From a virus: DNA of 64,000 nucleotides. The notes under the pieces were generated by a model that worked only from the letters and a program-made list of their open reading frames with translations, was not told the origin of the DNA and ran no database searches. Below are positions 10,647 through 12,838 of the stretch, piece by piece. The position numbers and the translations under genes are program-made. Where the stretch lies: positions 32,001 through 96,000 of IMG/VR virus record IMGVR_UViG_3300034102_001514; one strand, written 5' to 3'. Each line of letters opens with the position of its first letter. The stretch's first letter is position 1.

Positions 10647-10665
10647 ATAACTCCTTTAATATTTG

Positions 10666-10737
10666 TTGCCCCACAAGGATTTGAACCTCGATTCGCTGAA
10701 CCAAAATCAGATGTCCTGCCAATTAGACGATAGGGCA
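10666..10737 (-). tRNA. tRNA-Gln(TTG)
   Basis: Cloverleaf, anticodon loop TTTTGGT, T-loop TTCAAAT. Confidence 0.9.
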
Positions 10738-10743
10738 AAATTT

Positions 10744-11108
10744 AGTGATGTCGTTCGGTTAATAATTATTAAATTATCCTTTTAAAATTTCTTTTTTGTT
10801 TATTACTTTGTTTTCAAACTTATCAAAGCGTGAATCAATATAACGATAAAGTTCATTCATATTACTTTCATTATTATGATTTAATTCATCGGTATATCTA
10901 ATCAACGAAGCTTCCTTTTCTTCAAGTTGTTTGTAGACATCTTGAAGTGTTTCGTTAGTATCCCTAATTTGAGATTCTAACTCTTTTACTGATTTTCTCA
11001 TCTGAAACACAACCACAGCCATCAATGTATAGACAACCGTAATCATACCCCAAACAAATGCAAGAATTGTTTCCATGTTTTTTCCTTTTTTAAGTGAACG
11101 ACATCACT
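10744..11108. repeat. 13-bp perfect inverted repeat enclosing an ORF between two tRNAs
   Basis: AGTGATGTCGTTC (10744-10756) / GAACGACATCACT (11096-11108). Confidence 0.85.
10774..11076 (-). CDS. Single-TM coiled-coil protein inside tRNA array
   Basis: N-terminal hydrophobic helix, heptad-rich remainder. Confidence 0.75.
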   Translation of the reverse strand: METILAFVWGMITVVYTLMAVVVFQMRKSVKELESQIRDTNETLQDVYKQLEEKEASLIRYTDELNHNNESNMNELYRYIDSRFDKFENKVINKKEILKG

Positions 11109-11110
11109 TG

Positions 11111-11184
11111 TTGCGGGAGAGGGACTCGAACCCCCGACCTCAAGGTTATGAGCCTTGCGAGCTACCAACTGCTACCATCCCGCG
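11111..11184 (-). tRNA. tRNA-fMet(CAT)
   Basis: C1:A72 mismatch, loop CTCATAA, T-loop TTCGAGT. Confidence 0.9.
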
Positions 11185-11194
11185 ATTATAAGTC

Positions 11195-11249
11195 GTAGAC
11201 CCGGGCCTAACAAGCCGTGTAACACGGAAAGGCCCTTTTGAAGGTCTAC
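11195..11249 (-). ncRNA. Structured inter-tRNA RNA (nested three-stem hairpin)
   Basis: GTAGACC/GGTCTAC, GGGCCT/AGGCCC, CCGTG/CACGG nested stems. Confidence 0.45.
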
Positions 11250-11252
11250 TTG

Positions 11253-11325
11253 AGCGAAAGAGGAGATTCGAACTCCCGACCCTCACCTTGGCAAGGTGAT
11301 GCTCTACCAACTGAGCTACTTTCGC
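11253..11325 (-). tRNA. tRNA-Gly(GCC)
   Basis: Canonical cloverleaf, loop TTGCCAA, U73. Confidence 0.95.
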
Positions 11326-11331
11326 TTATTG

Positions 11332-11403
11332 AGCGGAGAGGTGGTTCTGCCCCACCATCTCTCATCTGGTTGATGAGTGAGTTTCTTTAAACTCCTCCTC
11401 CGC
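11332..11403 (-). tRNA. Non-canonical tRNA-Gly-like RNA (ACC)
   Basis: GCGGAGG/TCTCCGC acceptor plus U73; loop CAACCAG; T-loop GGCAGAA; no D-loop GG. Confidence 0.65.
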
Positions 11404-11409
11404 ATTATT

Positions 11410-11482
11410 GGGTATGAATGTCCGGTAACACTCGAATTAAATTCACTGCAGTCGGTTTTATTACTGTCTTCAATTCATACCC
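11410..11482 (-). ncRNA. Structured inter-tRNA RNA closed by a 10-bp stem
   Basis: GGGTATGAAT/ATTCATACCC terminal stem with weaker internal pairings. Confidence 0.4.
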
Positions 11483-11485
11483 TTG

Positions 11486-11558
11486 AGCCTCCAGCCGGAC
11501 TTGAACCAGCGACCTACTGATTACAAATCAGTAGCTCTACCAACTGAGCTATGGAGGC
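11486..11558 (-). tRNA. tRNA-Thr(TGT)
   Basis: Canonical cloverleaf, loop TTTGTAA. Confidence 0.95.
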
Positions 11559-11619
11559 TTGTGGTGATTGATTAGGGTTCAAACACCAAAACCCAATCGG
11601 CTAGACTCAGCTCTTTATA

Positions 11620-11793
11620 TTATTCAGCGGATGCTTCCACTTCATAAGCAGCATCTTCCAATTCTTGAGAATTTGTAGAATCAAGAACGGCTGTTGTATC
11701 AACAGATGTTCCTTCAACTACTACCTCTTCGGTAGATTCGCTACAGGCAGCAACTGAAGCTGCGATAACGAACATTGCAATCATTTTTCTCAT
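11620..11793 (-). CDS. Small acidic lipoprotein (57 aa) inside tRNA array
   Basis: Read manually: MRKMIAMFVIAASVAA-C-SESTEEVVVEG...; lipobox VAAC. Confidence 0.8.
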   Translation of the reverse strand: MRKMIAMFVIAASVAACSESTEEVVVEGTSVDTTAVLDSTNSQELEDAAYEVEASAE

Positions 11794-11852
11794 AGTAAAA
11801 CTTTAGATTAAATTATTAAACATAAAAACGACAAAGAACATTTCCTTGTTTG

Positions 11853-11924
11853 AGCGGAAGGTTGGAACTGCCCCAACTCCTCTTATCTGGATGATAAGCG
11901 ACTTTCTTTTAAGTCTTCTTCCGC
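11853..11924 (-). tRNA. Non-canonical tRNA-Gly-like RNA (TCC)
   Basis: GCGGAAG/CTTCCGC acceptor plus U73; loop CATCCAG; T-loop GGCAGTT; no D-loop GG. Confidence 0.7.
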
Positions 11925-11934
11925 AATTGTTTGA

Positions 11935-11968
11935 CAAATATACGAAATAAATTTCATATTGCCAAATC
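11935..11968 (-). promoter_or_regulatory. Bacteroidota primary-sigma promoter driving the tRNA-Gly-like gene
   Basis: Minus strand TTTGG..CGTATATTTG (TTTG -33 / TAnnTTTG -7). Confidence 0.75.
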
Positions 11969-11977
11969 TTTTTTTAG

Positions 11978-12063
11978 CGGAGGCTGTAGGATTCGAACCT
12001 ACGGAACCTTTCAGTTCAACAGTTTTCAAGACTGCCGCAATAGACCAACTCTGCCAAACCTCC
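11978..12063 (-). tRNA. tRNA-Ser(TGA)
   Basis: Long variable arm, loop CTTGAAA, G73. Confidence 0.95.
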
Positions 12064-12104
12064 TTTATTGTGTGAATAAGTATATAACACAAATTTAATA
12101 CTTG

Positions 12105-12176
12105 TAGTCCGTGCGGGAATCGAACCCGCCTTTTATCCGTGAAAGGGATATGTCCTAACCGATAGACTAACGGACC
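12105..12176 (-). tRNA. tRNA-Glu(TTC)
   Basis: Loop CTTTCAC, T-loop TTCGATT. Confidence 0.93.
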
Positions 12177-12179
12177 ATG

Positions 12180-12251
12180 CGCTCTTGGATGGATTCGAAC
12201 CAACGACCAATTGATTAACAGTCAACTGCGCTACCACTGCGCCACAAGAGC
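12180..12251 (-). tRNA. tRNA-Asn(GTT)
   Basis: Loop CTGTTAA, G73. Confidence 0.93.
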
Positions 12252-12256
12252 TTTTG

Positions 12257-12333
12257 TTGGAGAGGGGGGACTTGAACCCCTATGTGACCAGTTACCCTTT
12301 CTACAAGGTATAAGCTTGAGGGGATACTCTCCA
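12257..12333 (-). tRNA. D-armless tRNA-like RNA, apparent anticodon TAT (Ile)
   Basis: TGGAGAG/CTCTCCA acceptor, CAAG-CTTATAC-CTTG arm, GGGG-TTCAAGT-CCCC T-arm, no D arm at the normal position. Confidence 0.55.
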
Positions 12334-12338
12334 TTAAG

Positions 12339-12412
12339 CGGTCTGTACGGGACTCGAACCCGTGACCTCCGGCGTGACAGGCCAGCGTTGTAACCAACTC
12401 TACTAACAGACC
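12339..12412 (-). tRNA. tRNA-Asp(GTC)
   Basis: Loop CTGTCAC, G73. Confidence 0.95.
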
Positions 12413-12417
12413 CTTTG

Positions 12418-12490
<73 letters not shown>

Positions 12491-12544
12491 AACTCGTTGT
12501 TAAAGGACAACGATAACCTTGGTGTTGATTGTGCACGCCTGGGG

Positions 12545-12626
12545 TGGGAGTGGATGGACTCGAACCACCGATGTCGTTAGACGATTGATTTACAGTCAAC
12601 TGCAATAGCCACTATGCGACACTCCC
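12545..12626 (-). tRNA. tRNA-Tyr(GTA)
   Basis: Loop CTGTAAA, extended variable arm. Confidence 0.93.
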
Positions 12627-12631
12627 ATTAG

Positions 12632-12705
12632 TACCCCGAGCAGGATTCAAACCTGCGGCCTACGCATTAGAAGTGCGTTGCTCTATTCAGCTGAGCTATC
12701 GGGGC
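12632..12705 (-). tRNA. tRNA-Arg(TCT)
   Basis: Loop CTTCTAA. Confidence 0.93.
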
Positions 12706-12752
12706 ATTTTTTAAAAACCAATAAATCAAAGAACTGTATGTGGGTTTCCGTG

Positions 12753-12838
12753 TACCGATGGCCGGGATCGAACCGGCACACTCATTACTGAGCGAGGGAT
12801 TTTAAGTCCCTTGTGTCTACCTATTTCACCACATCGGC
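12753..12838 (-). tRNA. tRNA-Leu(TAA)
   Basis: Loop CTTAAAA, long variable arm. Confidence 0.95.

Follow-up and report, generated by a model that had tools for sequence, protein, structure and literature searches.

Two tRNA-Gly-like RNAs of a large aquatic phage as candidate non-decoding glycine carriers for Mom-type DNA modification

The window, a 64,000-nucleotide (nt) stretch of DNA covering positions 32001-96000 of the 125.8-kb virus record IMGVR_UViG_3300034102_001514 (~70% complete), encodes two 72-nt RNAs that resemble tRNA-Gly and differ from canonical tRNAs at many conserved core positions. Judging from their sequences, these look-alikes can probably be loaded with glycine, and they look unfit for codon reading. 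The same phage genome carries three genes for homologues of Mom, the phage Mu enzyme that moves glycine from Gly-tRNA-Gly to adenine N6 in double-stranded DNA (Silva et al., Nat Commun 2026, PMC13219725, cited here and below from excerpts of the article). We give even chances to the interpretation that the two RNAs are private, non-decoding glycine carriers for the phage's Mom-type DNA modification.

Two non-canonical RNAs in a phage tRNA operon

The window has a GC content of ~35% and is present in lake-water metagenomes. The two RNAs, called copy A and copy B, lie within a tRNA operon with the following features.

10665-12838, minus strand: tRNA operon, containing 12 of the 13 tRNAs that ARAGORN calls in the window
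11332-11403, minus strand: copy A, a tRNA-Gly-derived cloverleaf of 72 nt, separated by 6 nt from the tRNA-Gly(GCC) downstream
11853-11924, minus strand: copy B, a 72-nt tRNA-Gly-derived cloverleaf
11252-11325, minus strand: canonical tRNA-Gly(GCC), called by ARAGORN and scoring 71.8 bits with the Rfam tRNA model, used as the internal comparison
11965-11937, minus strand: promoter-like TTGGCA-17-TATATT, 12 nt upstream of copy B

The presence of two non-canonical tRNA-Gly-like RNAs, first proposed in an initial annotation made from the sequence, is confirmed. In each case the cloverleaf is the minimum-free-energy fold (-31.5 kcal/mol and z -4.90 for copy A; -26.3 kcal/mol and z -4.34 for copy B), and none of 200 shuffled sequences folds as well. 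Both copies have the 7/4/5/5-base-pair stems of a canonical elongator tRNA, and every compensatory difference that had been quoted between their D, anticodon and T stems is present. ARAGORN includes neither copy among its 13 tRNAs in the window, and neither is matched by any Rfam model, including RF00005, at the gathering score or at E ≤ 10.

The identity set of bacterial glycyl-tRNA synthetase (GlyRS) consists of G1-C72, C2-G71, G3-C70, U73, C35 and C36, and both copies have all of these elements. The canonical elongator core consists of U8-A14, G18 G19, U33, T54 U55 C56 and A58. Both copies instead have A8-U14, A18, A33, G54 G55 and G58, retaining only G19 and C56. Their D-loops, UUAAAGAA and UAAAAGAA, contain one G each. 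Copy A has the anticodon loop CAACCAG and the T-loop GGCAGAA; copy B has CAUCCAG and GGCAGUU. A GGCAG T-loop also occurs in alphaproteobacterial tmRNA. C32 and G38 could pair in both anticodon loops, which can shut the loop to five bases. The identity bases and the oddities listed in the initial annotation (A8, a D-loop without GG, A33, the possible C32-G38 pair and the two T-loops) are thus all found in the sequence. So are the two neighbouring elements it had reported, a normal tRNA-Gly close by and a promoter for one copy. The latter is a pattern match only, with 10 of 12 positions agreeing in a consensus scan; the same hexamers recur at 12880-12852, where they head the operon ahead of tRNA-Leu.

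A phage RNA family with covarying stems

A search pattern made from the T arm and the 3' acceptor strand found 65 viral contigs, of which 62 contain the same cloverleaf. Twenty-three gap-free relatives were used to build a covariance model, R1, which scores copy A at 90.4 bits and copy B at 95.7 bits. A covariance-model survey of phage genomes had been suggested along with the initial annotation; R1 returns 87 copies in 64 sources, representing 47 distinct sequences, and no canonical tRNA at E ≤ 1. A second pattern, with GGCGG, brought in further lineages, for a total of 59 distinct non-canonical sequences.

The stems of these RNAs are maintained by covariation. In a MAFFT alignment of 23 sequences, all 483 of the 483 stem cells pair, with double changes in 10 of 21 base pairs. 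In the alignment of the 47 distinct sequences, which was fitted to the covariance model, pairing is seen in 99.5% of 975 cells and double changes in 14 of 21 pairs; none of 500 shuffles reaches this level, and slid controls pair in 43-56% of cells. Since the search pattern itself preset the T arm and the 3' strand, it is the D and anticodon stems whose covariation is informative.

Among the sequences searched, the family is confined to phages. In 185,579 species genomes, a single pattern scan returned four matches, none of them a cloverleaf; divergent cellular copies could be missed by such a scan. Copy A has no blastn match in 50,697 phage records, and a 71-nt relative used as the query matches only phage Mosig.

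Conserved positions and two subfamilies

Freely covarying stems surround a small set of fixed bases. G1, G3, C35, C36, A37 and U73 are invariant among the 47 distinct sequences, and C2 is found in 46. Across the whole family, G1, C2 and G3 with their partners, U73, C35, C36, A37, A18, G19 and the U51-A63 pair are invariant or nearly so. The same holds for T-loop positions G54 G55 C56 R57 G58, such that T54, U55 and G18 are all replaced. Other positions divide the family by length.

72-nt subfamily (41 distinct sequences, including those of the window): A8-U14 in 39 and A8-C14 in 2; C32-G38 in 37; position 33 A in 21, U in 18, C in 1 and G in 1; position 34 U in 28 and A in 13
71-nt subfamily (18 distinct sequences): U8-A14 in all; U.A or C.A at 32-38; position 33 U in all, with fully canonical 7-nt anticodon loops; position 34 U in 16 and A in 2

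The swap at positions 8 and 14 in the 72-nt subfamily preserves the tertiary pair. This pattern of conservation and loss indicates that the window copies retain what charging needs while having lost U33, G18, T54 and U55. The set of wobble bases differs from genome to genome: there is one ACC and one UCC copy in the window, ACC twice in contig L043 and UCC twice in contig L032.

Three contigs with 71-nt RNAs (L006, L047 and L055) also encode a tRNA-Gly(GCC) that is normal by ARAGORN and has the T-loop UGCGAAU or UGCGAUU. These tRNAs have a 7-nt D-loop without GG, and they share G55 with staphylococcal non-proteogenic tRNA-Gly.

Predicted binding to EF-Tu

The contribution of the T-stem to elongation factor Tu (EF-Tu) binding was predicted, not measured, with the additive model of Table 2 of PMC3239215. 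The predicted term is -9.5 kcal/mol for each copy, whose T-stems have G49-C65, G/U50-C/A64 and U51-A63. For the 57 family members that can be scored, in which U51-A63 is invariant, it ranges from -8.1 to -9.5 kcal/mol. The canonical tRNA-Gly(GCC) of the window, with G49-U65, G50-C64 and G51-C63, is predicted at -11.0 kcal/mol, and 13 distinct scorable tRNA-Gly(GCC) from phage loci at -10.1 to -11.2 kcal/mol. Published values are a mean of -10.8 kcal/mol for bacterial tRNA-Gly and -9.6 to -9.7 kcal/mol for the non-proteogenic tRNA-Gly of Staphylococcus aureus (PMC7826273, cited throughout from excerpts). The family's T-stems are therefore predicted to bind EF-Tu about as weakly as those of the staphylococcal non-proteogenic RNAs.

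The initial annotation went on to suggest that the RNAs are glycylated but non-ribosomal. The computed features (identity bases, loss of U33, C32-G38 and a weak T-stem) fit this suggestion, under which the RNAs would be charged and excluded from EF-Tu.

Mom genes accompany the 72-nt RNAs

The genome to which the window belongs (G000) encodes three Mom proteins above the PF25680 cut-off of 27.1 bits, as well as a protein of the DruA family.

119151-119789, 119878-120537 and 112281-112859 of G000, outside the window: Mom (PF25680) open reading frames (ORFs), scoring 156.9, 144.8 and 121.5 bits among the three
about 110326-111513 of G000:C1 (L319:1288-2475), minus strand, outside the window: gene for a DruA-family (PF14236) protein, 89.5 bits, adjoining a clamp gene and the third Mom gene

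The alignment columns of R111 and S124 of Mu Mom, which are reported to be essential for its catalysis (PMC13219725), are invariant in all three paralogues, and by sequence the Mom of this genome looks active. The nearest cultured relative of the three proteins is a Mom-like protein of Polaribacter phage P12002L, with 45% identity, and they share 23-24% identity with Mu Mom. Two adjacent Mom genes share 17 nt, an arrangement that suggests a single unit with translational coupling. Upstream of this pair is a small ORF (L073:2927-3137, minus strand) whose end falls at the second Mom gene's start codon.

Mom genes and the 72-nt RNAs tend to be found in the same genomes. Among records at least 87% complete that were selected by the RNA pattern and carry a 72-nt RNA, 12 of 13 have Mom (G003, G008, G018, G020, G023, G031, G032, G033, G034, G041, G042 and G059), where G032, G033, G034, G041 and G042 are counted as Mom-bearing through their retrieval with Mom. 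In the reverse direction, R1 matches nine of the ten Mom-selected records with a completeness of at least 90%, in eight of them at 70 bits or more. These results give the initial annotation's idea of a glycine donor a partner, in the form of three Mom homologues in this genome and of the co-occurrence of Mom with the 72-nt RNAs, from which Mom may take its glycine. The same annotation had offered decoys for anticodon nucleases as another role, and this finds support in none of the results.

Some Mom phages carry related RNAs with normal elbows, among them the two Mom-selected records that fall short of a 70-bit match. Record G043 encodes a Gly-like tRNA with a CGUCCAG anticodon loop, and G044 encodes a canonical tRNA-Gly(UCC) together with two Gly-like RNAs, one with a 6-nt loop and one with a CGUCCAG loop. 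The Gly-like RNAs of both records have normal elbows, showing that the closed, U33-less loop recurs in Mom phages irrespective of the elbow.

A 518-amino acid (aa) protein of record G055 (L237:1422-2978, minus strand) was considered as a further Mom and rejected. It reaches a sub-threshold Mom score of 20.7 bits, is a Hef-like homing endonuclease and is not counted as Mom. It also has DUF7487 and a weak PvuRts1I-like match. Such jumbo-phage proteins have been interpreted as fusions of Mom with restriction endonucleases (Iyer et al. 2021, in the portion of PMC7824862 consulted).

Relatives in Pelagibacter phages and other possible partners

Two members of the 71-nt subfamily are found in cultured Pelagibacter phages, in both cases as unannotated elements.

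MT647606.1 (L068:2953-3023): tRNA-Gly(ACC)-like element of phage Mosig
NC_020484.1, 91140-91210 (L331:1501-1571), plus strand: tRNA-Gly(ACC)-like element of phage HTVC008M, 50.3 bits

The Mosig element has its own TTGACA-17-TATATT promoter on one side and the clamp gene on the other, whose start codon follows after 28 nt. The HTVC008M element has the T-loop AGCGUUA and ends 13 nt before an ORF start; Table 1 of PMC7029224 gives this phage a count of 0 tRNAs. Both phages have a DruA-family gene, as does the genome of the window. A PF14236 protein is present in 18 of the 23 records tested, Mosig included, and tblastn finds a homologue in HTVC008M with 55.8% identity to the Mosig-type protein.

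The DruA-family protein of the window's genome, the only copy folded, gave an AlphaFold model with a predicted local distance difference test score (pLDDT) of 94.7. Among 48,161 solved chains its best match is Mu Mom (8bv8_B; Z 9.9, rmsd 3.9 Å over 169 residues), followed by the next GNAT at Z 8.6, and Foldseek gives only weak matches to acetyltransferase folds. Searching solved structures by sequence with the DruA-like protein returned noise only. A cyanophage homologue is labelled 'methylcarbamoylase mom' in GenBank PQ898602.1.

These observations bear on the idea that the RNAs are charged glycine carriers or mimics for some other partner, which could be the DruA-family protein with its Mom-like predicted fold or, were the RNAs a sponge or decoy, host toxins or nucleases that target Gly-tRNA-Gly. 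We regard this idea as unlikely. Besides the shared presence of the gene, it draws on the arrangement in Mosig-like contigs, in which the RNA lies 4.7-7.9 kb downstream of the DruA-family gene in 15 of the 16 loci reaching 8 kb, and PMC13219725 mentions GNAT toxins whose targets for acetylation are charged tRNAs. However, this synteny comes from one phage lineage, the profile-profile comparison between DruA-like proteins and Mom is weak (probability 5%), and a nuclease or toxin target is indicated by none of the results. In addition, R1 has no match at E ≤ 0.01 in any of seven Synechococcus phage isolates that carry a DruA-family gene. The DruA-family gene is therefore not a specific partner of the RNA and was rejected as such.

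The positions of the two Pelagibacter elements just ahead of reading frames also raise the possibility that the RNAs are tRNA-shaped processing signals, recognized by RNase P or in 3' processing, that release neighbouring RNAs or mRNAs and have no aminoacyl function. The window offers a weak hint in the same direction. In four metatranscriptome runs, RNA contigs with exact matches cover an ORF at 11620-11793 at depths of 3.1 to ~170; they stop at 11822-11839, close to the 3' side of copy B. Still, a processing signal has no need for invariant C35, C36, A37, U73 and first three acceptor pairs, which persist across 59 sequences amid freely covarying stems, and we consider this explanation very improbable. 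The ORF itself, on the minus strand between copy B and tRNA-Thr, encodes 57 aa with a lipoprotein-type signal (LPAM_1, 18 bits, below the cut-off). In the same four runs copy A is represented by just two 107-nt contigs at a depth of ~4, which shows neither expression nor silence, and the cover of canonical tRNAs consists mostly of 90-95% matches from other organisms.

Carriers or decoders

A number of observations weigh against a carrier role. The RNAs are 68-77 kb away from the Mom genes in the window's genome, and an R1 match lies within 10 kb of only one of 80 Mom loci. Mu Mom works with all three isoacceptors of Escherichia coli, and Mom thus needs no private carrier. Small Mom phages lack the RNA; one of them is Polaribacter phage P12002L (complete, 48.7 kb), where the best R1 score with filters off is 10.9 bits and no family member is found. 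Conversely, the near-complete record G061 has the RNA and no Mom was found in it. Its RNA sits at a contig end, and the 20-kb region around Mom in G041, a record with the same pair of RNAs, is absent from the contig. The records represent about seven phage types, all of them large aquatic phages, and shared descent could therefore account for some of the co-occurrence. Copy B and the bin 11896-11959 are uncovered in the four metatranscriptome runs, a result that shows neither expression nor silence.

The Pelagibacter phages form a further exception, in that the 71-nt relatives of Mosig and HTVC008M occur without a Pfam Mom. In Mosig, Mom was sought with PF25680 (E ≤ 0.001), a profile of the three paralogues (E ≤ 10) and a Hef-like query (E ≤ 1), and the empty answers carry little weight. 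The odd elbow alone is consequently not tied to a PF25680 Mom. The DruA-family protein softens this exception to the extent that its predicted fold looks Mom-like.

The remaining points against a carrier are those that would suit a decoder: A37 is invariant, position 34 is always U or A, 29% of the phage's glycine codons are GGA, and the record has yielded no canonical tRNA-Gly(UCC). On this alternative, the RNAs are working if unusual tRNA-Gly isoacceptors (UCC and ACC) that read GGA/GGG and GGU and add to the host's supply to suit an AT-rich genome, with the elbow being a quirk of the lineage. It agrees with an anticodon that is always NCC and with the place of the RNAs in a tRNA operon, where they share their 3' trailer with the normal tRNA-Gly. 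Among the first 64 sources, moreover, ARAGORN calls a canonical tRNA-Gly(GCC) in 24 and a canonical UCC in none, and the 71-nt relatives combine canonical U33 loops, present in 20 of 20, with the lack of a detected PF25680 Mom in Mosig. GGT accounts for another 58% of the glycine codons of the window's genome, where an ACC anticodon would duplicate the GCC isoacceptor; codon usage fails to separate the two readings.

Other features fit poorly with decoding. Both window copies have A33, position 33 varies within the 72-nt subfamily and most of its members could close the loop with C32-G38. The replacement of T54, U55 and G18 and a predicted EF-Tu term 1.3-1.5 kcal/mol weaker than that of normal tRNA-Gly point the same way, as do wobble bases without a stable complement across genomes. 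Like G044, record G036 has a canonical tRNA-Gly(UCC), in this case with a tRNA-Gly(GCC), yet it also encodes a family member, which argues against the family RNAs taking a decoding slot that would otherwise be vacant. We consider it improbable that the RNAs serve as decoders.

A possible route for glycine

If the two RNAs are glycine carriers for Mom, we infer a route in which both would be transcribed with the tRNA operon, and copy B also from its own promoter-like site. The RNAs would then be excised in the manner of tRNAs, receive CCA and be charged by the host GlyRS, for which the marks in the acceptor stem, the discriminator and C35/C36 would have been retained. The closed, U33-less loop, the rebuilt D/T elbow and the T-stem with its weak predicted affinity for EF-Tu would exclude the charged RNA from translation. 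Glycine would go to the three Mom proteins and from there to adenine N6 of double-stranded DNA. Such modification could protect the roughly 170-kb genome from restriction, and the host's decoding pool would not be drained.

A broader generalization can be put forward only tentatively. Large aquatic phages may run a translation-insulated pool of aminoacyl-tRNA, charged by the host and reserved for DNA-aminoacylating GNATs of the Mom superfamily, with the DruA-family protein among them. Were this so, Mosig and HTVC008M, which have been published as tRNA-free or unannotated at the locus, would hypermodify their DNA from private Gly-tRNA, and the DruA of Druantia defence might be a tRNA-dependent modifier of nucleic acids.

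A carrier role, if true, would mean that a virus supplies its own non-decoding aminoacyl carrier for DNA hypermodification and separates DNA chemistry from translation, as staphylococci separate cell-wall synthesis. It would also explain a widespread class of tRNA-like genes, including those of cultured Pelagibacter phages, that tRNA finders and Rfam miss. The RNAs are candidate natural co-substrates for Mom biochemistry, and in metagenomes a Gly-like RNA with a closed loop could serve as a marker of phage DNA carrying Mom-type modification. The swapped 8-14 pair and the elbow with A18/G55 and G54/G58 represent a natural alternative tRNA core that may be of use in tRNA engineering.

Comparison with known systems

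No prior description of phage-encoded tRNA-Gly carriers for Mom was found in a literature search of main article texts. The closest biochemical precedent is Mom of phage Mu. Like Mu, the window's genome has PF25680 ORFs with R111 and S124, and Mom needs its glycine on tRNA-Gly specifically, rejecting Gly-tRNA-Ala (PMC13219725). Unlike the large phage described here, which has two or three Mom paralogues and brings two RNAs of its own, Mu carries no tRNA and draws on the isoacceptors of its host. Neither the excerpts of PMC13219725 nor a term search of the article yields a mention of a phage-encoded carrier.

A Mom homologue accompanied by a conserved tRNA-Gly-like RNA is also found in another mobile element. 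In 16 ssrA genomic islands of Dehalococcoides, a tRNA-Gly-like 'pseudo-tRNA' lies in the first 150 bp of a mom homologue (McMurdie et al. 2011, from the available text of PMC3146451). There the RNA is inside the mom gene of a bacterial island, whereas here the RNAs are in a tRNA operon far from the Mom genes.

The most similar carriers are the NP1-NP3 tRNA-Gly of S. aureus and Staphylococcus epidermidis, which are glycine donors for FmhB, FemA and FemB (PMC7826273). In both systems, extra tRNA-Gly paralogues keep their charging marks, have weak EF-Tu T-stems (-9.6 to -9.7 against -9.5 kcal/mol in the phage copies) and carry G55, with the T-loops of NP genes having TGC or TGT in place of the proteogenic TTC and those of the phage RNAs starting with GGC. 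In both, an acyl-transferase takes glycine for a non-ribosomal product, as established for staphylococci and proposed here for the phage. The phage RNAs differ in being encoded by a phage rather than a cell, and the window copies have in addition G54, G58, the A8-U14 swap, a lost U33 and a closable C32-G38. Their proposed acceptor is a DNA adenine instead of peptidoglycan. According to the excerpts of PMC7826273 the NP lineage exists only in staphylococci, and together with the lack of a cloverleaf match in cellular genomes this suggests that the phage RNAs are an analogue, not a relative, of the staphylococcal carriers.

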